This document shows, piece after piece, positions 2,183 to 47,521 of a stretch of 64,000 bases of DNA. This stretch comes from Escherichia coli (GTDB lineage Bacteria; Pseudomonadota; Gammaproteobacteria; Enterobacterales; Enterobacteriaceae). Under the pieces are notes generated by a model, which was given only the letters and a program-made list of their open reading frames with translations, did not search any database and was not told where the DNA came from. The stretch lies in assembly GCF_041248615.1 (NCBI RefSeq), contig NZ_CP158426.1; one strand, 5' to 3'. How positions within the stretch are numbered: position 1 is the stretch's first letter; each line of letters begins with the position of its first letter. The translations under genes and the position numbers were made by a program.

Positions 2183-3112
2183 ATGAAACCACTGCTGGAT
2201 GTGTTGATGATCCTCGATGCCTTAGAAAAAGAAGGCAGTTTTGCGGCGGCGTCGGCCAAACTCTACAAGACGCCGTCCGCTCTGAGTTACACCGTTCACA
2301 AGTTGGAAAGCGACCTTAATATTCAATTGCTTGATCGTAGCGGACACCGCGCTAAATTCACCCGCACCGGAAAAATGTTATTAGAGAAAGGGCGGGAAGT
2401 TCTGCATACCGTGCGGGAACTGGAAAAGCAGGCGATCAAACTGCATGAAGGCTGGGAAAACGAGCTGGTGATTGGTGTGGACGACACCTTCCCTTTTTCT
2501 CTGCTTGCGCCACTCATTGAAGCTTTTTATCAACATCATAGTGTGACGCGCCTGAAGTTTATCAATGGCGTACTCGGTGGTTCCTGGGATGCCCTGACTC
2601 AGGGGCGAGCGGATATTATTGTTGGCGCGATGCATGAGCCACCATCTTCCAGTGAGTTTGGTTTTTCACGGTTGGGCGATCTGGAACAAGTCTTTGCGGT
2701 CGCGCCTCATCATCCGTTAGCCCTGGAAGAAGAACCGTTAAACCGTCGTATCATTAAGCGATATCGGGCGATTGTGGTGGGGGACACTGCGCAGGCCGGC
2801 GCTTCTACGGCCTCACAACTTCTCGACGAACAAGAAGCCATTACCGTTTTCGATTTTAAAACCAAGCTGGAGCTGCAAATTAGCGGCCTCGGCTGCGGCT
2901 ATTTACCCCGTTATCTGGCGCAACGTTTTCTCGATAGTGGCGCGTTAATCGAGAAGAAAGTGGTCGCCCAAACTCTCTTTGAACCCGTCTGGATTGGCTG
3001 GAACGAACAGACCGCAGGACTTGCCAGTGGCTGGTGGCGGGATGAAATTTTAGCAAATAGTGCGATCGCCGGTGTTTATGCAAAATCTGATGACGGAAAA
3101 TCAGCCATTTAA
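2183..3112 (+). CDS. yeeY: LysR-family transcriptional regulator
   Basis: 309 codons from internal ATG at 2183 (ORF track starts 2162); N-terminal HTH region typical of LysR family. Confidence 0.85.
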   Translation: MKPLLDVLMILDALEKEGSFAAASAKLYKTPSALSYTVHKLESDLNIQLLDRSGHRAKFTRTGKMLLEKGREVLHTVRELEKQAIKLHEGWENELVIGVDDTFPFSLLAPLIEAFYQHHSVTRLKFINGVLGGSWDALTQGRADIIVGAMHEPPSSSEFGFSRLGDLEQVFAVAPHHPLALEEEPLNRRIIKRYRAIVVGDTAQAGASTASQLLDEQEAITVFDFKTKLELQISGLGCGYLPRYLAQRFLDSGALIEKKVVAQTLFEPVWIGWNEQTAGLASGWWRDEILANSAIAGVYAKSDDGKSAI

Positions 3113-9850: not shown

Positions 9851-10909
9851 GTGCGTGCCGATAAGTCATTAAGCCCGTTTGAAATCCGGGTATACCGCCA
9901 TTACCGCATTGTGCATGGTACTCGGGTCGCGCTGGCATTCCTGCTCACTTTTCTCATTATCCGCCTGTTTACTATCCCGGAAAGCACCTGGCCGCTGGTC
10001 ACCATGGTGGTGATTATGGGGCCAATCTCGTTCTGGGGTAACGTTGTCCCTCGTGCCTTCGAACGTATTGGCGGTACGGTGTTGGGGTCGATTTTAGGTC
10101 TTATCGCTCTGCAACTGGAGTTAATCTCGTTACCGCTGATGTTAGTCTGGTGCGCGGCGGCGATGTTTCTTTGCGGTTGGCTGGCGCTGGGCAAGAAACC
10201 GTATCAAGGTTTATTGATTGGGGTGACGCTGGCAATTGTTGTTGGTTCCCCGACAGGTGAAATTGATACGGCGTTATGGCGAAGCGGCGATGTGATCCTC
10301 GGCTCTTTACTGGCAATGTTGTTTACCGGTATCTGGCCACAACGAGCGTTCATCCACTGGCGCATTCAACTGGCAAAAAGTCTGACCGAGTATAATCGGG
10401 TCTATCAATCTGCATTCTCACCGAACTTACTCGAACGCCCACGTCTGGAAAGCCATCTACAAAAACTCCTGACCGATGCCGTGAAAATGCGTGGGCTGAT
10501 TGCGCCCGCCAGCAAAGAAACCCGTATTCCAAAATCGATATATGAAGGTATCCAGACCATTAATCGCAATCTGGTTTGTATGCTGGAGTTGCAAATCAAT
10601 GCATACTGGGCCACGCGCCCCAGCCATTTCGTATTATTGAACGCGCAAAAACTGCGTGATACCCAGCATATGATGCAGCAAATACTGCTGAGCCTTGTTC
10701 ATGCGCTATACGAAGGTAATCCGCAGCCGGTTTTTGCCAATACGGAAAAATTGAACGATGCTGTGGAAGAGCTGCGTCAGTTGCTGAATAACCACCATGA
10801 CCTGAAGGTTGTGGAAACACCAATCTATGGTTATGTGTGGCTGAACATGGAAACGGCACATCAGCTTGAGTTGCTATCGAATCTGATTTGCCGGGCCTTG
10901 CGCAAATAA
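9851..10909 (+). CDS. yeeA: inner membrane protein YeeA (FUSC/aromatic acid exporter-like family)
   Basis: 352-aa ORF, GTG start, N-terminal half hydrophobic; conserved position between sbmC and yeeX. Confidence 0.8.
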   Translation: MRADKSLSPFEIRVYRHYRIVHGTRVALAFLLTFLIIRLFTIPESTWPLVTMVVIMGPISFWGNVVPRAFERIGGTVLGSILGLIALQLELISLPLMLVWCAAAMFLCGWLALGKKPYQGLLIGVTLAIVVGSPTGEIDTALWRSGDVILGSLLAMLFTGIWPQRAFIHWRIQLAKSLTEYNRVYQSAFSPNLLERPRLESHLQKLLTDAVKMRGLIAPASKETRIPKSIYEGIQTINRNLVCMLELQINAYWATRPSHFVLLNAQKLRDTQHMMQQILLSLVHALYEGNPQPVFANTEKLNDAVEELRQLLNNHHDLKVVETPIYGYVWLNMETAHQLELLSNLICRALRK

Positions 10910-11080
10910 TTCCTGAACTTCAGAATCATCTTGCTGCTGCTTCGATTCAGCAAGGATAAAGGGTATGATAGTGAAAAGGGATAAAAGCATTGTCATCTGC
11001 GGCAGCTATGAGTAATGTTGGCCCTAACGAATAGCGGTTGCTTAAACGAATCCGACTCTCACATTATCAGGGGTATAAAA

Positions 11081-11410
11081 ATGGAAACTACCAAGCCTTC
11101 ATTCCAGGACGTACTGGAATTTGTTCGTCTGTTCCGTCGTAAGAACAAACTGCAACGTGAAATTCAGGACGTTGAGAAAAAGATCCGTGACAACCAGAAG
11201 CGCGTCCTGCTGCTGGACAACCTGAGCGATTACATCAAGCCGGGGATGAGCGTTGAAGCAATCCAGGGCATCATCGCCAGCATGAAAGGTGACTATGAAG
11301 ATCGCGTTGACGATTACATCATCAAAAATGCCGAGCTCTCCAAAGAACGCCGCGATATCTCCAAAAAGCTGAAAGCTATGGGCGAAATGAAAAACGGCGA
11401 AGCGAAGTAA
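11081..11410 (+). CDS. yeeX: UPF0265-family protein YeeX
   Basis: 109 codons from [30 protein letters not shown]; coiled-coil-like small protein. Confidence 0.85.
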
Positions 11411-11423
11411 TTCCTGTTTTATT

Positions 11424-11452
11424 CAATGAGGGTTGCCTGGCAACCCTCATTG
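11424..11452. terminator. hairpin terminator between yeeX and pduV (convergent)
   Basis: caatgagggttgcc-tgg-caaccctcattg perfect inverted repeat. Confidence 0.55.
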
Positions 11453-11510
11453 CTCATTGTTTCTTTTCTGTGTATCACCGTCATCATTCCCATCTGATAA
11501 CCTATTGAAA

Positions 11511-32964: not shown

Positions 32965-33040
32965 TGGCTCCTCTGACTGGACTCGAACCAGTGACATACG
33001 GATTAACAGTCCGCCGTTCTACCGACTGAACTACAGAGGA
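32965..33040 (-). tRNA. asnV: tRNA-Asn (GUU)
   Basis: 76-nt sequence on minus strand tcctctgtagttcagtcggtagaacggcggactgttaatccg...gagcca with anticodon loop cuGUUaa. Confidence 0.95.
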
Positions 33041-35373: not shown

Positions 35374-35449
35374 TGGCTCCTCTGACTGGACTCGAACCAG
35401 TGACATACGGATTAACAGTCCGCCGTTCTACCGACTGAACTACAGAGGA
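35374..35449 (-). tRNA. asnU: tRNA-Asn (GUU)
   Basis: Identical 76-nt sequence to asnV on minus strand. Confidence 0.95.
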
Positions 35450-37197: not shown

Positions 37198-37273
37198 TCC
37201 TCTGTAGTTCAGTCGGTAGAACGGCGGACTGTTAATCCGTATGTCACTGGTTCGAGTCCAGTCAGAGGAGCCA
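37198..37273 (+). tRNA. asnW: tRNA-Asn (GUU); integration target of downstream island
   Basis: 76-nt sequence identical to asnU/asnV on plus strand. Confidence 0.95.
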
Positions 37274-37434
37274 AATTCAAGTTTTCATGCTTATCTGTAC
37301 GTCTCTATTTGTTTACGATTCAGTAAGTTAGCGTGAAAATCCTTCCCGGTGCGTATCTGGTTTTCTCTCTGTATCGGGATAATTTGGTGGTCAGATCTGG
37401 GGTCAGTTTGGTTCGATTCTGGAGTGACCCCCAA

Positions 37435-38696
37435 ATGTCTTTAAACGATTCTAAAATCCGCAAGTTAAAACCCTCTTCCCGTCTGGTAAAACTCTCCGAC
37501 TCTCACGGTCTGTATCTGCTCGTCAATCCGGGCGGTTCACGCATCTGGTATCTCAAATATCGTTTCAACGGAAAAGAATCCAGAGTCAGTCTTGGCGCAT
37601 ACCCGCTTGTCTCACTGGCAGAAGCCAGGCAACAGCGCGACGGTATCCGTAAGTTACTGGCGCAGAATATCAACCCGGCGCAGCAGCGCATGGCGGAGAA
37701 AGCGGCCTGCTCCCCTGAAAAGTGCTTTAAGGCAGTGGCGCTGGCCTGGCACAAAACCAACAAAAAATGGTCGGCTGATTATGCCGCCCGTATTCTCGCC
37801 AGTATGGAAAACCATATCTTCCCGGCGATTGGTCATCTGCCAGTTGCCACTCTTAAAACGCAGGATTTACTGCTTTGTTGCGGGTTATCGAGGATAAAGG
37901 CTTTCTGGAAGTCGCGTCCCGAACCCGGCAGCAACTCAGCAACATCATGTGCTATGCCGTTCAGCAGGGGCTTACCGAAAGCAATCCGGCGCAGCATCTG
38001 GATGGCGTTGTCGCCTCACCCGTAAAGAATCACTACCCCGCGTTACTGCTGGAGCGGTTGCCCGAACTGCTTGGCCGCATCGGTGACTATCAGCAGGGCC
38101 GGGAGTTAACACGGCTGGCGGTGGTGCTGACGTTGCACCTGTTTATCCGTTCCAGCGAACTGCGTTTCGCCCGCTGGAGCGAGATCGATTTCAGGCACAA
38201 AATCTGGACCATCCCCGCCACCCGCGAGGCAATCGACAAAGTACGGTTTTCGGGGCGTGGCGCAAAAATACGTACCCCGCATATCGTGCCGCTCTCCCGC
38301 CAGGCGATTGCCATTCTGAAACAGATACAGGAGCTTTCCGGCCATCTGGATCTGGTGTTTCCCGGTGATCATAACCCGTACAAGCCAATGAGTGAAAACA
38401 CCACCAACCGGGCGCTACGCCTGATGGGGTATGATACGAAAACTGAAATCTGCGGGCATGGACTCAGGGCGATGGCCTGTAGCGCCCTGGTGGAGTCGGA
38501 GCTGTGGTCACGCGATACGGTGGAGCGGCAAATGAGCCACCAGGAGCGTAACAGCGTGCGGGCAGCCTATGTGCATAAAGCGGAGCATCTGGAGGCCAGA
38601 AAGGCCATGATGCAGTGGTGGTCGGATTATCTGGATGTGTGCCGCGAGGGGTATGTTGCGCCGTACATTTATGCCCGGCAGCATAAGGCAGCCTGA
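37435..38696 (+). pseudogene. P4-type tyrosine integrase, interrupted by a frameshift near 37870
   Basis: N-terminus MSLNDSKIRKLKPSSRLVKLSDSHGLYLLVNPGGSRIWYLKYRFNGKESRVSLGAYP typical of P4-family integrases; reading frame changes between ORF 37333-38025 and ORF 37875-38696. Confidence 0.8.
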
Positions 38697-40033: not shown

Positions 40034-40650
40034 CTATTTTGCGACATTCATGAATTCAGTCATTCCTCCCTCCAGCGGTAGCCGTACACCTGTTTCACCC
40101 AGCGACCGCGACCGTCGCCATGACCCAGATCCGTCGCCGTCAGCGCCAGTGACTCCTTTTCGCTGAATCCCTGCGCCAGTATCCAGGACTGTCGTATAAC
40201 GGGGACGCCCGCCTTTGGTGCCAAATACCACTTTTAGCCGGGTTTCACCGCGGGAAATGGCTTTCAGCCACGTTTTCAGCGACTGTGAACTCTGTACCGC
40301 CTCCTGCGAACGCAGCCCCATCAGCCGCGCAATCTCCAGGCTGCTGCCAGCCCTGCGTCCTGAGTACGGGCTTTCTCCATCACCTGCCTGCGTCCAGCCT
40401 GTCTCAGCACGGCCCGCAACGCTGCCATTTCGTTTTGCAACGTTCGTAAACCAATATCCAGCTCCAGCCGTTCCTCAATGTAGCATTCGATATGGCGAAC
40501 CTTGATCTGCTCCACCCGCTGGATCTGGATATTCAGCGCCCGTAAATGTTCACTGAACCGTTTTGTAATATGGATACGGTCATTCACCGTTTTGAAGCTG
40601 CCGCCCGCTTTCTTCGCCAGCGCCTTCATTTCACTGCTTAATTTACTCAT
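40034..40650 (-). pseudogene. tyrosine recombinase-like remnant (frameshifted, truncated)
   Basis: ORF 40321-40650 resembles integrase N-terminal SAM-like core-binding domain; adjacent ORF 40034-40321 in another frame carries a GTKGGRPR segment; total too short for an intact recombinase. Confidence 0.4.
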
Positions 40651-41416
40651 GAATCCCTCTGCAACAAAAACAAACAGTCTCCGGCGTGTGCTTTTTGGCT
40701 GCGCCAGAACGATACCTTTACGCCGGAGTGGTAGTTTGTTGAGGTTTAGGGAGTTTCAGGCTGTACGCAGTACAGACTGCCTGCGAAGCAGGAGTGTCTC
40801 CGGGGCTTCTTGCCCCCCTCGGTATCGATCTTTTTCTCCTTTACTCTTAGCTGACAGCGGCCCCAAAGGGCATGTCAGACGGCGGAAATATGGCGCAGGC
40901 CAGAACTGGCGCGGCTTGTGGCGGTGAGTTGTGCGGCGTCACTTTGCTTTTTCGCTGGCGCGACCAAAGTGACGCCTCGTCTGGTGCAGGGGGTAAACGT
41001 TACGTTTCTGGTGCAGGGTGACGGTCACGCGGCAGCAAAGCCTGACGGCAATGCAGGCCGCAGCCCGTCAATGTAAGGCGCTGGTTGTCAGCAGAAGATA
41101 AAACCCGGCAAAGCCAGAGTGTCAGCCCGTAAAGCCGGGTATCTGGTGCAGTGATGGTGTATATGTACGTCAGTCTCAGATGCAGGTATTTTTGCATCCC
41201 CGGCGTTTTCAGAGATCAACGCCGGTAAAGGATGCCATGCTGGCGAAGCCAGGCGCTTCTTTCAGACGTGAAGCGACAAAGGGACTGCCCGGAGGCAGTT
41301 TGTTGCAGGCGGGAGACTGCGCCATTATTTCTGGTGCAGGAAGGAAAAACTGTTTCCGGGTTTAAAAGATTGTTTGCTTACCTGGTGACGGAAAAACTGC
41401 CGCGCTTCGCTTGTCT

Positions 41417-41460
41417 TCTCCCGGCGCGCTGCCAGCAAAAGCAGGCAGCGCGCCGGGAGA
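41417..41460. repeat. perfect 17-bp inverted repeat with 10-nt spacer
   Basis: tctcccggcgcgctgcc-agcaaaagca-ggcagcgcgccgggaga. Confidence 0.7.
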
Positions 41461-41566
41461 GTCTGGTTTTACTGTAACAATGCGCCTGACGGTTCAGCCA
41501 TCAGGATCGGCGTTTATGCATGAGTCTTCCGGTACGGTTGCCCCGATCATCGATGTATCTGGACGG

Positions 41567-41755
41567 TCAGATAATTTCCGGTGATGTTTCCAGCGCATCC
41601 GCAATCAGTTTTTCGCCGCGCGGCCTGGAGCGGGTCAGCGCATTTGCCAGCGTGGAAGACGCCAGCCCGGCCCTGCGGGAAACCTCAGCCAGCGATGTTC
41701 CCTTTTTTCTCAGGCCCGCGATAATATCGGCGGGGTGCCAGTCGGGTTGCATCAT
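41567..41755 (-). CDS. Ner/Nlp-like HTH DNA-binding protein (short form)
   Basis: 62-aa ORF with DWHPADIIAGLRKKGTSLAEVSRRAGLASSTLANAL, close to the Ner/Nlp (SfsB) signature. Confidence 0.7.
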   Translation of the reverse strand: MMQPDWHPADIIAGLRKKGTSLAEVSRRAGLASSTLANALTRSRPRGEKLIADALETSPEII

Positions 41756-42213
41756 GCTGGCCTCCCGTCGATAACCTGTATGCCGTCAGCAGTACATATC
41801 CAGCGTGGGGCGTTCAGATTGGCGGCAAAATACCAGACCAGTTCGCACAGCAGCCCGGTCAGCGTGGTTTCGGTTTCCGGCAGCAGCACGTGGCCGTTCA
41901 GTATCTGCGTCAGCGCCAGGCAGTAATCGCAGAGTGATCCTGCATCAGGCTCAAAACCGGGTGAAACATCGGGAAGATCATTCGTAATAAACCCGTCAAT
42001 CAGATGTGGTGGGATCGGCTCGTTCAGCGTGGGCCGCAACAGTGCAAGACAGGTATTAAGCCTGCCACAGAGCGCCGTTTTCAGCGCCGGATCGCAGCAC
42101 TCGATGAGCGTTGTGGCAACGCGATCGCAGTACTCCGCCAGATCGGTGAAATCGGTAGCGGCACTAAAGGGAACAGCAAGTAAATTGCATTCAGAGGTGA
42201 GAGTAGTCGCCAT
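41752..42213 (-). CDS. hypothetical Cys-rich protein (153 aa), translationally coupled to Ner-like gene
   Basis: ORF overlaps downstream Ner-like start by 4 nt (ATGA); 9 Cys; no recognisable family. Confidence 0.45.
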   Translation of the reverse strand: MATTLTSECNLLAVPFSAATDFTDLAEYCDRVATTLIECCDPALKTALCGRLNTCLALLRPTLNEPIPPHLIDGFITNDLPDVSPGFEPDAGSLCDYCLALTQILNGHVLLPETETTLTGLLCELVWYFAANLNAPRWICTADGIQVIDGRPA

Positions 42214-42734
42214 AAGGCCGTCTACAGTGAGTGATAAATATTCCAGCCACTGGAGAGGCTAATCTCACGGGTGGTGGAACCGGACGGGGTTAGCCTTACC
42301 AGCCTCACTGACACTGGCGCGTCTTTCGACGCCCCCGCCCGATCCCGCCATTGAGATGAGACCGTGCGCGACACACAAATATTGTATCGTCAGTGAGGAT
42401 CTTCAGGAGGCTAATCCCGACGCCTGATTTTGCAGGCGCGGCGCAACAATACAATGTTCGGTAATTTTCAGCAAGAGGTTTAGCGGAAGCAGACGCACAG
42501 GAAAATACAATCACGCGATAAATATTAAATACAATTATATTTATATAAAATATATATTGAGCAATATGCAGACACTTTCCAGTAAATATCCTGTCAGTTA
42601 ATTCGTCCCGTTGATATCAGTCAAAAAAATAAATGTAAAAAGAGCGTATTTCGTTTCATACAGTAACGTTATTTATCATTTTGTCCGGTGTCGCCAGCAT
42701 CAGGCCAGATGAACCATAAAAAAGGATATCAGCG

Positions 42735-45700
42735 ATGAGCGGAAAACCGGCAGCACGTCAGGGCGATGCCACAATGAAAGGTGGCCCGATAGTCCAGGGG
42801 TCGGCAGGCGTGAGGATTGGCGCGCCAACCGGCGTGGCCTGTTCAGTGTGCCCCGGCGGATTCACTTCCGGTAACCCGGTGAATCCGCTGCTCGGTGCAA
42901 AAGTACAGCCCGGCGAAACCGATTTCGCGCTGCCCGGCCCGTTACCGTTCGTGCTCTCCCGCACCTACAGCAGCTACCGGACGAAAACCCCTGCGCCCGT
43001 CGGTATCTTCGGTCCTGGCTGGAAAGCACCCTTTGATATCCGCTTACAGATACGCGATAACGAACTGATACTCAATGATAACGGTGGCAGAAGCATTCAT
43101 TTTGAGCACCTGTTTCCCGGTGAGGATGGCTTCAGCCGCAGCGAATTATTCTGGCTGGTGCGCGGCGGCGTGGCGAAACTGAATGAAAGTCACCGTCTTG
43201 CCCCACTCTGGCAGGCTCTGCCGGAAGAACTCCGCATGAGTCCGCATATTTATCTGGCGACGAACAGTCCGCAGGGGCCGTGGTGGATACTCGGCTGGAG
43301 TGAGCGGGTACCGGGTGTGGATGAGGTGCTGCCTGCGCCATTGCCGCCGTACCGGGTGCTGACCGGCCTGGTGGACCGCTTCGGGCGTACCCTGACCTTC
43401 CGGCGTGAGGCAGTTGGCGAATTTACCGGGGAAATCACCGGCGTGACCGATGGCGCAGGCCGTCAGTTCCGCCTGGTGCTGACCACGCAGGCGCAGCGGG
43501 CGGAAGAGGCCCAGCAGCAGGCGGTTGCAGCCGGAGCAAAACGACCAGATATCCCGGTTTCATTGCCGGACTATACAGAATATGGCCGGGATAACGGCAT
43601 CCGCCTGTCAGCGGTGTGGCTGACGCATGACCCGGAATACCCGGAGAATTTACCTGCCGCGCCACTGGTGCGCTACGACTGGACGCCACGCGGTGAACTG
43701 GCGGCGGTGTATGACCGCAGCGGTACGCAGATGCGCCACTTTACTTACGATGATAAATACCGGGGCCGGATGGTGGCGCACCGTTACGCAGGCAGGCCGG
43801 AGATGCGTTACCGCTACGACGACATCGGGCGCGTGACGGAACAACGTAATCCGGCGGGTTTAAGCTACACCTATCAGTATGAGAAAAACCGCATCATCAT
43901 CACCGACAGCCTGAACCGGTGCGAGGTGCTGCATACAGAAGGCGAAGCCGGGCTGAAACGGGTGGTGAAAAAAGAGCACGCTGACGACAGCGTCACACAG
44001 AGTCAGTTCGATTCCATTGGCCGCCTTCAGTCACAGACGGATGCGGCAGGCCGGACGACAGAATACAGTCCGAATGTGGTGACGGGTCTCGTCACACGCA
44101 TCACCACGCCGGACGGCAGGAAATCGGAATTTTACTATAACAACCAGAACCAGTTAACCTCAGCATCCGGGCCTGACGGACTGGAAATGCGCAGGAAATA
44201 TGATGAGTACGGGCGTCTGACGCAGGAAACCGCTCGCAACGGCGATATCACCCGCTACAGTTATGATAATCCGCACAGTGAATTACCCTCTGCAACTGAA
44301 GATGCGACGGGTAGCCGCAAGCAGATGACGTGGAGCCGTTACGGGCAGTTACTGACTTTCACCGACTGCTCAGGCTACCAGACCCGTTATGAATACGACC
44401 GCTTTGGTCAGATGACGGCGGTCCACCGTGAGGAAGGTGTCAGTCTTTACCGCAGCTATGACAGCCGTGGTCAGTTAATCTCGGTGAAAGATACGCAGGG
44501 CCGTGAAACGCAGTATGAGTACAACGGTGCAGGCGACCTGACCGCCATTATCACGCCAGACGACAACAGAAGCGAGACACAGTACGATGCGTGGGGAAAG
44601 GCCGTCAGTACCACGCAGGGCGGGCTGACGCGCAGCATGGAATACGACGTTGCCGGACGTGTCATCAGCCTGACCAACGAGAACGGCTGTCACAGCGACT
44701 TCAGTTACGATGTGCTCGACCGCCTGATACAGCAGAGCGGCTTTGACGGGCGGACGCAACGTTACCGTTACGACCTGACCGGGAAACTCACGCAGAACGA
44801 GGATGAGGGGCTTGTCACCCTCTGGCACTACGACGAATCGGACCGTATCACACACCGCACGGTGAACGGCGAACCGGCAGAGCAGTGGCGGTATAACGCC
44901 CACGGCTGGCTGAAAGAAATCAGCCACCTGAGCGAAGGTCACCGGGTGGCGGTGCATTACGGCTATAACCGTAAGGGACGTCTCACCGGCGAGCGCCAGA
45001 CGGTGCATAACCCGGAGACGGGGGAACTGCTCTGGCTGCATGAGACAAAACACGCCTACAACGAACAGGGTCTGGCAAACCGCGTCACGCCGGACTGCCT
45101 GCCTGCTGTGGAGTGGCTGACCTACGGCAGCGGTTACCTGGCGGGGATGAAGCTGGGCGACACGCCGCTGCTGGAGTACGCGCGCGACCGCCTGCACAGA
45201 GAAACGGTGCGCAGCTTTGGCAGCATGGCAGGCAGTAATGCCGCATACGAACTGACCAGCACATACACCCCCGCAGGCCAGTTACAGAGCCAGCACCTGA
45301 ACAGCCTGGTGTATGACCGTGACTATGGGTGGAATGACAACGGCGACCTGGTGCGCATCAGCGGCCCGCGACAGACGCGGGAATACGGCTACAGCGCCAC
45401 GGGCAGGCTGGCGAGTGTGCGCACCCTCGCACCGGACCTGGACATCCGCATCCCGTATGCCACGGACCCGGCGGGCAACCGGCTGCCGGACCCGGAGCTG
45501 CACCCGGACAGTACACTCACAGTGTGGCCGGATAACCGCATCGCGGAGGATGCGCACTATGTCTACCGCCACGATGAATACGGCAGGCTGACGGAGAAGA
45601 CGGACCGCATCCCGGCGGGTGTGATACGGACGGACGACGAGCGGACCCACCACTACCACTACGACAGCCAGCACCGCCTGGTGTTCTACACGCGGATACA

Positions 45701-46916
45701 GCATGGAGAGCCACTGGTCGAGAGCCGCTACCTCTACGACCCGCTGGGACGGCGAATGGCGAAAAGGGTATGGCGGCGGGAGCGTGACCTGACGGGGTGG
45801 ATGTCGCTGTCGCGTAAACCGGAGGAGACATGGTACGGGTGGGACGGCGACAGGCTGACGACGGTGCAGACTGACACCACGCGTATCCAGACGGTGTACC
45901 AGCCGGGAAGCTTCACGCCGCTCATCAGAATCGAAACAGACGTGACCGAACTGGAGAAAGCGCAGCGGCGAAGCCTGGCGGAGAAGTTACAGCAGGAAGG
46001 GAGTAAAGATGGTCACGGCGTGGTGTTCCCGCCTGAACTGGTGCGGCTGCTGGACAGGCTGGAGGGGGAAATCCGGGCAGACCGTGTGAGTGACGAAAGC
46101 CGGGCGTGGCTTGCGCAGTGCGGGCTGACGGTGGAGCGGCTGGCGGCACAGATCGAGCCAGTTTATTTGCCTGAGCGAAAAATACATCTTTATCACTGCG
46201 ACCACCGGGGACTGCCGCTGGCGCTTATCAGTACTGAAGGTGCAACGGAATGGCGTGGGGAGTATGACGAGTGGGGGAATCAGCTTAATGAGGAGAACCC
46301 GCATCATCTGTTCCAGCCATACCGCCTGCCGGGGCAGCAGTACGATGATGAATCGGGGCTGTGCTATAATCGTTATCGTTACTACGAGCCGTTACAAGGG
46401 AGGTATATTACACAGGACCCGATTGGGTTAAATGGGGGGTGGAATTTATATAAATATCCGCTGAATCCAATAAATTATGCAGATCCTCTTGGCTTAGCCG
46501 TAGATATAAACCACTTCCCAGTCAACGAAGACATACGAAATTATGCAGAGAAAGTTTGGAATAATCCTAATATCATTACAATTGGAACACATGGTGATCC
46601 TCAATCAGTATATGATGAAAATTATAATAAGATAGATGTCAAGACATTAGCTAATGAGGTTCGAAATCATCCTAAATTTAAACCTGGAATGTCAGTAAGA
46701 CTGTTATCCTGTAATACAGGAAAAGGAAATAACTCTTTTGCACAGCAATTGGCAGATGAACTAGGTGTGAGAGTCTATGCTCCTGACCAATATGACTGGT
46801 ACTATTCAAATGGTAAGGTAGAGCCTTGGGGAGGATTCTATGATGCAAACAATCAATTGCAAATGGACACGAATCAGCCTGGACATGAGTTTACATTCAA
46901 GCGAAGGAAACCATAG
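42735..46916 (+). CDS. rhs: Rhs-family polymorphic toxin (PAAR-like N-terminus, YD-repeat core, divergent C-terminal domain)
   Basis: 1393-aa ORF; N-terminus [11 protein letters not shown]...[26 protein letters not shown] like E. coli RhsA-C; many YDxxGR repeats; DPIGL...DPLGL core/toxin boundary motif. Confidence 0.9.
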
Positions 46917-46918
46917 GT

Positions 46919-47521
46919 ATGAGGTATTTTCTCTTTATATTTATAACAATCCCCCTTATCTCTGGAGGTCATATGAGTAATGATAGCGAAAAGATAATAT
47001 CAACATATTCGCTCAATTTTTTATCACCAGATGATGTGAGGAAAGAAGAACTTAAGGCATCACAAGGTGATAGTGATGCTGCATTTAAATTGTACAAATA
47101 TTACCTTTTTTGCGAGCCAAAATCATACAGAAAACAGCACGAATGGTTAATAATATCGGCAAATAATGGAAATGCTATAGCTCAATATAACTTATCAAGA
47201 GAACTTGAGTCAGAAGGAAAAGTAGATGAATCAATACAATGGCTGAAAAAATCAGCGGAACATGGTAATAATTATGCACAATATCAGATGTCAAAATATT
47301 TATTAAAAATAGGTGATATTAGAGGATCGGAATATTATCTAAACTTATCTGCGGATAACGGATGTGTATTTGCAATAAAAGATATTATCAAAAATATGAT
47401 GGATAGTGGAAGGTACGATGACGCCCTCATTTGGGTTGAAAAATTGAAAAAATTGTATCCTGACACAAATACCGAACTTTACATACAAAAAATAACGCAG
47501 AAAAAAAAGCAATCCAAATAA
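46919..47521 (+). CDS. putative Rhs immunity protein (Sel1-like repeat protein)
   Basis: ORF starts 3 nt after rhs stop; low GC like the rhs C-terminal region; Sel1-like repeats; stronger SD (ggagg) precedes internal ATG at 46970, so true start may be there. Confidence 0.6.
   Translation: MRYFLFIFITIPLISGGHMSNDSEKIISTYSLNFLSPDDVRKEELKASQGDSDAAFKLYKYYLFCEPKSYRKQHEWLIISANNGNAIAQYNLSRELESEGKVDESIQWLKKSAEHGNNYAQYQMSKYLLKIGDIRGSEYYLNLSADNGCVFAIKDIIKNMMDSGRYDDALIWVEKLKKLYPDTNTELYIQKITQKKKQSK

Follow-up and report, generated by a model that had tools for sequence, protein, structure and literature searches.

Two small overlapping open reading frames (ORFs) on the minus strand of a 64,000-nucleotide stretch of Escherichia coli DNA (contig NZ_CP158426.1; "the window" is this whole stretch) are probably the first two cistrons of an early operon that is controlled by an antisense RNA and belongs to a P4-related integrative island at a tRNA-Asn gene. 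The first encodes a protein of 153 amino acids (aa) and the second a Ner-like helix-turn-helix (HTH) protein, and the defining feature of the locus is the C4/IsrK-type RNA leader that precedes them. An earlier note on this DNA had described ORFs of 153 and 62 codons joined by an ATGA overlap, and both the ORFs (41752..42213 and 41567..41755, minus strand) and the 4-nt overlap (41755-41752) were borne out. For comparison, 79 loci were fetched at one genome per species, with about 80 copies of the ORF among them, and 69 Enterobacterales leaders, that of P4 included, were aligned (alignment A2). From the upstream end, the elements of the leader and the two genes are as follows.

42446 to 42474, minus strand: putative P_LE-like promoter, with -35 TTGCTG (42474-42469), a 17-nt spacer and -10 TATTGT (42451-42446), from alignment with P4
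42377 to 42452, minus strand: IsrK/seqA-like target region (a1, b1), from the Rfam families isrK and c4-a1b1
42267 to 42355, minus strand: gene of a C4/P4-CI-type antisense RNA, Rfam RF01695 (clan CL00128), 62.2 bits against a gathering threshold of 45
42256 to 42262, minus strand: target site b2, TTAGCCT, in the loop of a terminator-like hairpin (42262-42243), from the b':b2 pairing and a terminator scan
42221 to 42231, minus strand: target a2, CTCACTGT (42231-42224), with the degenerate Shine-Dalgarno sequence GTAGA (42225-42221), from alignment A2 and covariation
41752 to 42213, minus strand: 153-aa ORF, the first cistron after the C4 RNA and at the position of P4 Kil, from the ORF list, family conservation, the ratio of nonsynonymous to synonymous substitution rates (dN/dS) and an AlphaFold2 model
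41501 to 41755, minus strand: Ner/Nlp-like gene of Pfam HTH_35, with an open part of 62 aa (41567..41755) and a remnant of the frame to about 41501

Two sites in the C4 RNA match targets on both sides of its gene. The hairpin loop a' (TCAGTGAG, 42311-42304) is complementary to CTCACTGA at 42397-42390, in the upstream target a1 (CCTCACTGACG, 42398-42388), and to CTCACTG at 42231-42225, in a2, and the single-stranded b' (AGGCTAA, 42296-42290) is complementary to TTAGCCT both at b1 (42414-42408) and at b2 (42262-42256). The family consensus reads CTTACTGGAGG, so that a2 shares two G residues with the Shine-Dalgarno sequence GGAGG, i.e., overlaps the ribosome site. The window has GTAGA there, reading CTCACTGTAGACGGCCTTATG where the consensus has CTTACTGGAGGCTGCC..ATG, and its a2 ends 11 nt 5' of the ATG of the 153-aa ORF. 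The window lacks the terminator hairpin seen after a1 in P4 and most relatives (alignment A2). The minus-strand hairpin at 42262-42243 lies between b2 and a2, and its 5' arm and loop contain b2. In the family consensus, the outer stem of C4 has a 3' strand (CCACCACC) that can instead pair with the downstream GGTGGTGG, and alternative structures around the target site are suggested.

The identity of the leader is supported by its conservation and covariation. With nhmmer, sequences resembling C4 and a1b1 were found upstream of the ORF, at about -140 and about -250 respectively, in about 70 of the 80 copies, and all seven related loci that were compared with Rfam scored above the gathering thresholds (68-77 bits for C4 and 55-73 bits for isrK). 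Across the 69 aligned leaders, the C4 helices are 99.5-100% paired. Pairing of a' with a2 is retained at 98.7%, with six of the eight base pairs changed on both sides, and pairing of b' with b2 at 100%, with six of seven pairs compensatory; a':a1 and b':b1 likewise covary, and target pairing overall amounts to 97-100%. Slid controls were 30-45% paired, and none of 500 shuffles attained the observed values. About 20 variants of a' and seven of b' occur in 30 combinations and, judged by sequence, would be many immunity specificities of the kind that distinguishes P1 from P7. Of 5426 complete E. coli genomes, 1357 (about a quarter) carry the leader, as do many other Enterobacterales; it is rare on plasmids and essentially absent from phage records.

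The c4 RNA of P1 and P7 (Rfam RF01695, RF03163) is an antisense RNA processed from a transcript that also carries its targets. An a/b target pair lies on either side of it, of which the downstream one covers the ribosome site of the first gene; the immunity types of the two phages differ by compensatory changes in a and b. The icd-ant locus of P1/P7 and the locus in the window thus have in common the duplicated a/b pairs, with the downstream pair at the ribosome site of the first gene. They differ in that the payloads are unrelated and that the 153-aa family resides in integrase-bearing islands or in stand-alone units of 0.7 kb, not in phage.

We propose that transcription would start at the P_LE-like promoter near 42470-42446 on the minus strand, run past the IsrK/seqA-like region (b1, a1) and then the C4/CI-type RNA gene, and next reach the second target pair, with b2 first and a2 abutting the Shine-Dalgarno sequence, before entering the 153-aa ORF and, via the ATGA overlap, the Ner-like HTH gene. 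Once processed, the C4 RNA would pair through a' and b' with a2 and b2 and would block the initiation of translation of the 153-aa ORF, and coupling and polarity could extend the silencing to Ner and the genes beyond. P4 CI silences kil in this way, and P1 c4 silences icd/ant. The 153-aa protein would accordingly occupy the Kil position as the payload. In the promoter region, alignment A2 shows conserved CTTGC and TATCTT blocks, which line up with the stretch of P4 that precedes seqA.

The P4 immunity region (P_LE, seqA, CI RNA, seqC, kil/eta) is like the window in the order and strand of its elements; Rfam places c4-a1b1, isrK and C4 at 8705-8420 of P4, in the order of the window and upstream of the early genes. 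The targets flank the RNA gene in both, the downstream one at the ribosome site of the first translated ORF, and both have the first residues MATTLT... and a P4-type integrase adjoining a tRNA. The N-terminus of the family (MATTLT.THPLL) matches residues 75-86 of the old P4 'cI ORF', and the matched P4 stretch opens a 65-aa ORF (MATTLTPSHPEF...VSRA) that is preceded by AGGAGG and the downstream target and is P4 Kil. In a published summary, Kil is Eta in truncated form; it 'functions in cell killing', and its translation depends on read-through of a terminator (PMC10111431). IsrK has also been equated with P4 seqA, and C4 with the P4 CI immunity RNA (PMC3632133; PMC4825925). By position, as the first translated ORF after the CI-type RNA, the 153-aa ORF corresponds to Kil. 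The first 6-10 residues are common to the two proteins; full-length homology was considered and rejected, only 25 N-terminal columns aligning in hhalign (probability 65%; 153 aa against 65 aa). Among the differences, the payload in the window is a 153-aa four-helix protein whereas P4 has the 65-aa Kil, and a Ner-like HTH gene comes next whereas P4 has epsilon, orf151, cnr and alpha. An Eta-like long frame across the leader is not conserved in the 153-aa family, and the island in the window adds a second recombinase (Integrase_1) and the RNA motif EFASI, joined in intact relatives by the motif STAXI.

The leader is not restricted to these two payloads. A search of plasmid records with the leader retrieved a Klebsiella pneumoniae replicon (NZ_CP129771), in which, at 2497-3030, an isrK-like element (53.6 bits) and a C4 element (66.7 bits) precede an ORF that begins at the equivalent ATG and encodes a 97-aa protein; the protein has MATTPIQTD as its first residues and a SymE_toxin domain (63 bits against a gathering threshold of 29). 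One leader, first codons included, carries at least three unrelated payloads, namely Kil, a SymE-family toxin and the 153-aa family. The type I toxin-antitoxin system SymR/SymE is comparable in that a small antisense RNA occludes a ribosome site, and the K. pneumoniae leader carries a protein with its toxin domain. However, the RNA in the window lies in cis, upstream and on the same strand, and makes two short loop-target contacts, unlike an overlapping antisense transcript. Together with the covarying specificities, the exchangeable payloads provide a tractable natural set of orthogonal RNA switches and a handle on how such islands stay silent or become induced. Because two of the three payloads are known growth inhibitors, the role that we prefer for the 153-aa protein, by analogy only and quite tentatively, is that of an effector, silenced by the RNA, that inhibits growth or triggers a switch. 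A transposon-directed insertion-site sequencing (TraDIS) study of S. Typhi found IsrK-like elements in P4-like prophages to be required (PMC3632133), which is what would be expected if loss of immunity were harmful.

The 153-aa ORF is a real protein-coding gene under purifying selection. One homology search returned 196 homologues from Escherichia, Salmonella, Klebsiella, Citrobacter, Enterobacter, Dickeya, Pectobacterium, Brenneria, Hafnia and others, and a profile search of 1.84 billion representatives returned 230 clusters at 50% identity. Family members are 58-88% identical over their full, conserved length, the median pairwise dN/dS is 0.25 (1247 pairs, across genera), and the window allele departs from the family at 2 of 52 highly conserved columns, which equals the family median. 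AlphaFold2, supplied with the family alignment, predicts a four-helix up-down bundle with a C-terminal beta hairpin (predicted local distance difference test score, pLDDT, 85; predicted template modeling score, pTM, 0.80). The homology and structure prediction that the earlier note had suggested as a check have therefore found a conserved ORF with a confident model, and its statement that the protein has no recognizable family also holds, as no match was found in Pfam, NCBIfam, PHROGs, PADLOC or PDB sequences. These results bear on the idea that the ORF is a mere leader ORF, the translation of which would matter (for anti-termination or coupling, cf. orf45) and the product of which would not. 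The isrK-locus orf45 offers a precedent, being conserved as nucleotides while its amino acids vary and having to be translated for anrP (PMC4825925), and the first codons shared by unrelated payloads suggest a constraint at the RNA level at the start. However, the dN/dS, the full-length identity and conserved length, the confidently predicted fold and the existence of stand-alone units with no downstream gene to couple make this explanation the hardest of all to credit, and we give it almost no weight.

As to its character, the 153-aa protein is acidic (pI 4.09; 19 D+E against 6 K+R), and structure searches with the model returned generic helical bundles only; it most likely acts by binding another protein. 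The label "Cys-rich" in the earlier note suits the window allele, which has 10 cysteines and not the nine counted then, but not the family as a whole: among 75 members the number ranges from 4 to 10, the only near-universal cysteines are C29 (74/75) and C95 (71/75), C98, C49 and C55 occur in 72-85%, the remainder vary, and C40 and C140 are unique to the window. A Cys-cluster protein that binds a metal or an iron-sulfur center was rejected, since only C29 and C95 exceed 90% conservation.

Homologues among the 196 are without Pfam domains, except for 'Phage_ASH' where the gene call extends upstream. Calls of an 'ash family protein' (Pfam PF10554) extend over the C4 gene in proteins P0004, P0018, P0071, P0073 and P0101 and, in the window, span 42214-42351 on the minus strand. 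A long form like Eta (the 'ash family') was rejected, the upstream in-frame extension varying in length and frame and amounting to 15 codons in the window; therefore, the 'ash family protein' calls in this family are read-through across the C4 RNA gene, and these annotations are accounted for within the 153-aa family.

Could the 153-aa protein instead be an anti-repressor or helper-derepression factor, binding a phage or island repressor in the manner of P4 epsilon, P1 Ant or Gifsy-1 AnrP? A small, acidic, helical protein would suit protein binding, and other loci of the C4 family, P4 (by the annotation of epsilon) and Gifsy-1 (AnrP), control a downstream anti-repressor; P1 ant is also an anti-repressor downstream in a C4-family locus. 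Sequence comparison gives this no support, however: similarity to P4 epsilon was not found and is rejected, that to P4 orf151, suggested by the like length, is rejected at an hhalign probability of 0.2%, and no Bro, Ant or KilAC domain was found in the protein with Pfam. The ORF lies, moreover, at the Kil position rather than that of epsilon, and stand-alone copies sit in the core chromosome, far from any prophage. We consider an anti-repressor unlikely, and the silenced effector remains our preferred role for the protein.

The second cistron encodes a Ner/Nlp-like protein, as the earlier note had it, although its 62 codons turn out to result from a nonsense truncation. The product matches Pfam PF13693 (HTH_35; E=1.5e-23, 83 bits against a cutoff of 25) over profile positions 1-58 of 75, as well as PHROG 769, 'transcriptional repressor'. 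It thus resembles Mu Ner and E. coli Nlp (SfsB) at the level of the profile but lacks the C-terminal IWPSRY part and falls below the SfsB equivalog cutoff of NCBIfam (90 against 150). A codon-by-codon comparison with six relatives (L011, L019, L020, L025, L002 and L006) locates the defect: TGA at 41567-41569 replaces the TGG (Trp) codon of the invariant IWPSRY motif, the window reading ATT ATC TGA CCG TCC AGA TA where the relatives have ATT ATC TGG CCG TCC AGA TA. Profile positions 59-75 are missing, and past the stop codon the frame keeps its homology. The change W44R removes another conserved Trp, and intact relatives are 68-84 aa long. For the Ner-like protein, the likeliest role is that of a DNA-binding switch of the Cro/Ner type acting on the promoters of the island itself.

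Of the 80 copies, 38 have a Ner-like gene directly after the ORF, always with the identical 4-nt overlap, and the remaining copies have no conserved gene next. Conservation of ATGA in 38/38 Ner-bearing copies would be in keeping with a type II toxin-antitoxin pair, in which the 153-aa protein is the toxin and the coupled Ner-like HTH protein both antitoxin and autorepressor, as would two small genes on a mobile island; in the window, both Ner and the Shine-Dalgarno sequence of the ORF are lost, which could be compensatory. However, the ORF occurs without Ner in 42 of the 80 copies, including stand-alone units under equal purifying selection, and its invariant partner is the C4 RNA, Ner not being obligatory. 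PADLOC and toxin-antitoxin families gave no match, and an AlphaFold2 model of an ORF-linker-Ner fusion, built on a paired alignment of 26 natural pairs, folded both domains well but separately (pTM 0.50); as a weak test that yielded no interface information, it lends no support to a fixed complex. We regard such a pair as improbable and continue to read the two ORFs as cistrons under a common RNA leader.

The isrK-orf45-anrP-isrJ locus of Gifsy-1 in Salmonella has, like the window, an IsrK-type 5' element followed by a C4-like processed RNA and an upstream ORF that is AUGA-coupled to the next gene, and its deregulation is toxic (PMC4825925). It differs in that orf45 overlaps the RNA and its protein is not conserved, whereas the ORF of the window family encodes a conserved, folded protein. 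The coupled gene of Gifsy-1 is an anti-repressor and not a Ner-type HTH gene, and Gifsy-1 IsrK activates in trans (PMC4825925).

Because of that activation, the sign of regulation by the upstream element is uncertain, and this is one of several points that tell against an operon silenced by a P4-type RNA. The isrK and c4-a1b1 matches in the window itself fall below their thresholds (42439-42377, 45.5 bits against 50, and 42452-42400, 43.8 bits against 46.7, respectively). A simple sigma-70 consensus scan of the window did not call the promoter, which is weak by consensus, and it is therefore from the alignment with P4 that we infer it. Transcription, processing of the RNA and repression as the direction of control are all proposed from sequence alone. 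A toxic or switch role for the 153-aa protein is suggested only by where its gene lies and by analogy, because its fold is generic and it has no informative relative. Finally, tblastn at E<=1e-5 with P4 alpha, epsilon, orf151, vis, sid, delta and psu found no match in the 64-kb window and, in the roughly 80 related loci, only a weak one to vis (L090), P4-type int being widespread; no alpha, epsilon, sid, delta, psu or vis gene lies within 10 kb of any copy. Since these core genes were not found, the island does not strictly qualify as a P4-like satellite.

Related loci fall into two classes by their surroundings. In class A, to which the window belongs, the order is cargo, promoter, IsrK-like element, C4, ORF, Ner, (STAXI), EFASI, Integrase_1-type recombinase, P4-type integrase and tRNA. 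This order agrees with Rfam, which remarks that EFASI is found after STAXI and ahead of integrases and that c4 is sometimes close to STAXI. The cargo side carries genes for Type I restriction-modification (RM), DarTG, AbiE, TacAT, DUF4747, Avs2, DUF4917, Dcm, parts of type VI secretion systems (T6SS) and Rhs, and 66 proteins neighboring the leader on that side represent 53 Pfam families, none of them seen in more than three. The module is a conserved island backbone, and the cargo is hypervariable and rich in defense genes. The earlier note's candidate of a regulatory module of the island pointed in the right direction, in that this backbone is conserved beside integrases and a tRNA, while the pair as such, at 38/80, is not obligatory. 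Neighborhood conservation, another of its checks, gave a correspondingly divided answer, with the leader kept in about 70 of the 80 copies, Ner in 38 and the cargo differing between islands. The orphan Rfam motifs C4/IsrK, STAXI and EFASI and two recombinases are thereby joined in one backbone, and a widespread 'hypothetical protein' is assigned a mechanism, RNA-based immunity.

Class B copies encode a variant that is about 145 aa long and lacks the C-terminal hairpin, and they have neither Ner nor integrases. Homology between them extends only from about -260 to +415/480, and they occupy core regions, for example between the genes for methyl-accepting chemotaxis proteins (tar/tap) and cheW or beside a HigBA-like pair. 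At L098 and L099, as well as at L021, L022, L026, L027 and L034, the locus is a 0.7-kb unit of promoter, IsrK-like element, C4 and 145-aa ORF. A genome holds at most five class B copies, which differ in a'/b' specificity; 0 of 27 within-genome pairs of copies share both specificities against 5% expected, a suggestive difference that is not significant. The leader and the 145-153-aa ORF could, on a bolder reading, form, rather than a mere remnant of P4-like elements, an autonomous and new 0.7-kb cassette of RNA antitoxin and protein effector with many orthogonal specificities and several heteroimmune copies to a genome, which would mark or nucleate islands of defense and competition, the 153-aa protein being a new effector of growth arrest or of phage or satellite sensing. 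The 3' end of the ORF may then serve as an insertion site, and duplications at L060 point this way. We think this unlikely beside an early operon of a P4-related island. The duplications themselves, which occur in class B units at 10383-10601 and 11855-12073 of L060 and also in L022 and L054, consist of the 3' end of the ORF and a hairpin like the repetitive extragenic palindromic (REP) type, repeated about 1.5 kb downstream; they are 95% and 84% identical and bracket a 95-aa ORF and a GNAT-like gene, perhaps a cassette that entered where the ORF ends.

The island around the 153-aa/Ner pair in the window is small and degenerate and lies at an asn tRNA gene, and the locus is 100% identical to that of swine chromosomes of the enterotoxigenic E. 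coli (ETEC)/O139 type. The RefSeq annotation of the identical locus opens with tRNA-Asn and two frameshifted genes, first that of a P4-type integrase and then one named 'phage integrase N-terminal domain'. A small hypothetical gene, the HTH gene and the gene of the 153-aa hypothetical protein come next, and an Rhs protein, a tetratricopeptide repeat (TPR) protein and yeeN follow divergently. The remaining features of the island in the window are listed here.

37198 to 37273, plus strand: tRNA-Asn, the integration site at the end of the island, from ARAGORN and Rfam (tRNA, 72.6 bits)
37434 to 38695, plus strand: P4-type tyrosine integrase, a frameshifted pseudogene ('frameshifted' in RefSeq; tblastn with P4 Int, 54% identity over 266 aa)
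40059 to 40650, minus strand: second recombinase of the Phage_int_SAM_2/Integrase_1 type, frameshifted and with internal deletions (Pfam PF12834, E=3e-41; frameshifted in RefSeq)
40706 to 40833, minus strand: EFASI RNA motif upstream of the second recombinase gene (Rfam RF02957, 100.8 bits against a gathering threshold of 51.2)
41397 to 41472, minus strand: conserved GC-rich long hairpin downstream of Ner, at the STAXI position of intact islands, from an inverted repeat in the sequence
42456 to 42734, no strand: AT-rich spacer (34% GC, computed) between the backbone and the cargo gene rhs

A tRNA gene also terminates related islands. Within the window, no distal att site that repeats the 3' end of the tRNA-Asn gene was found, which leaves the far boundary of the island unmarked. 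The N-terminal ORF of the second recombinase is 40321..40650 (minus strand), intact 294-aa orthologues occupy the equivalent position in other islands, and the alignment to them breaks at 40383/40171-40179. EFASI has the equivalent place in L047 and L058 and was found by nhmmer at 13 distinct species-level loci and in close E. coli relatives; in intact relatives it lies between Ner/STAXI and the gene of the Integrase_1-type recombinase. The window copy is decaying, with its Shine-Dalgarno sequence lost, a nonsense codon in Ner and both recombinases frameshifted.

The earlier note had also seen the pair as divergent from rhs across an AT-rich interval. The gene rhs (42735..46916, plus strand) is intact and does diverge from the 153-aa ORF, at a distance of 521 bp, and the AT-rich description holds for the 279 bp next to rhs (34% GC); the other 242 bp (42214-42455) are 56% GC and encode the structured RNAs of the leader. 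The shared intergenic region, and the presence of Rhs cargo in several other E. coli island alleles as well, might point to a regulator devoted to the neighboring rhs gene, or to a small accessory system linked with it. However, cargo varies from island to island (Type I RM, DarTG, AbiE, Avs2, DUF4917, T6SS genes) across the many families counted above, and the link to rhs is incidental. Homology between islands ends at the leader promoter, for the window at about 42440-42505, short of rhs, and Ner is truncated while rhs is intact. We rate such a regulator or accessory system as highly improbable, and regulation of rhs by the window copy in particular is unlikely because its Ner is truncated and the Shine-Dalgarno sequence of its ORF is mutated. 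The message of the window itself is modest, that of a decaying copy that probably does not regulate rhs; it is as one member of the family of P4-type RNA-controlled early operons that we read it.

Some minor observations concern the surroundings. Three tRNA-Asn genes lie within 4.3 kb (32965-33040, minus strand; 35374-35449, minus strand; and 37198-37273, plus strand), and the island is at the third. The hairpin block at 41397..41472 contains a perfect 16-bp GC-rich inverted repeat about 100 nt past Ner; 73-77 bp of the block are conserved in six other islands, and L002, L006 and L025 have equivalent hairpins with different stems. An Rfam scan of the window gave no match to STAXI, which in L047 occupies the place equivalent to this hairpin, and the hairpin may be a STAXI remnant or a terminator. 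The closest E. coli allele with an intact island (L011) has, at 10816-11474, an extra HTH_3/HTH_31 gene of 99-118 aa between Ner and EFASI; this gene is absent from the window, where 41092-41397 holds about 305 bp of unrelated sequence instead. On the cargo side, the C-terminal region of the Rhs protein (1393 aa) is unlike that of the otherwise identical strain K_EC180, and a 200-aa ORF at 46919-47521 (plus strand), annotated as a TPR protein in relatives, begins 3 nt past the rhs stop codon and is probably the cognate immunity gene.

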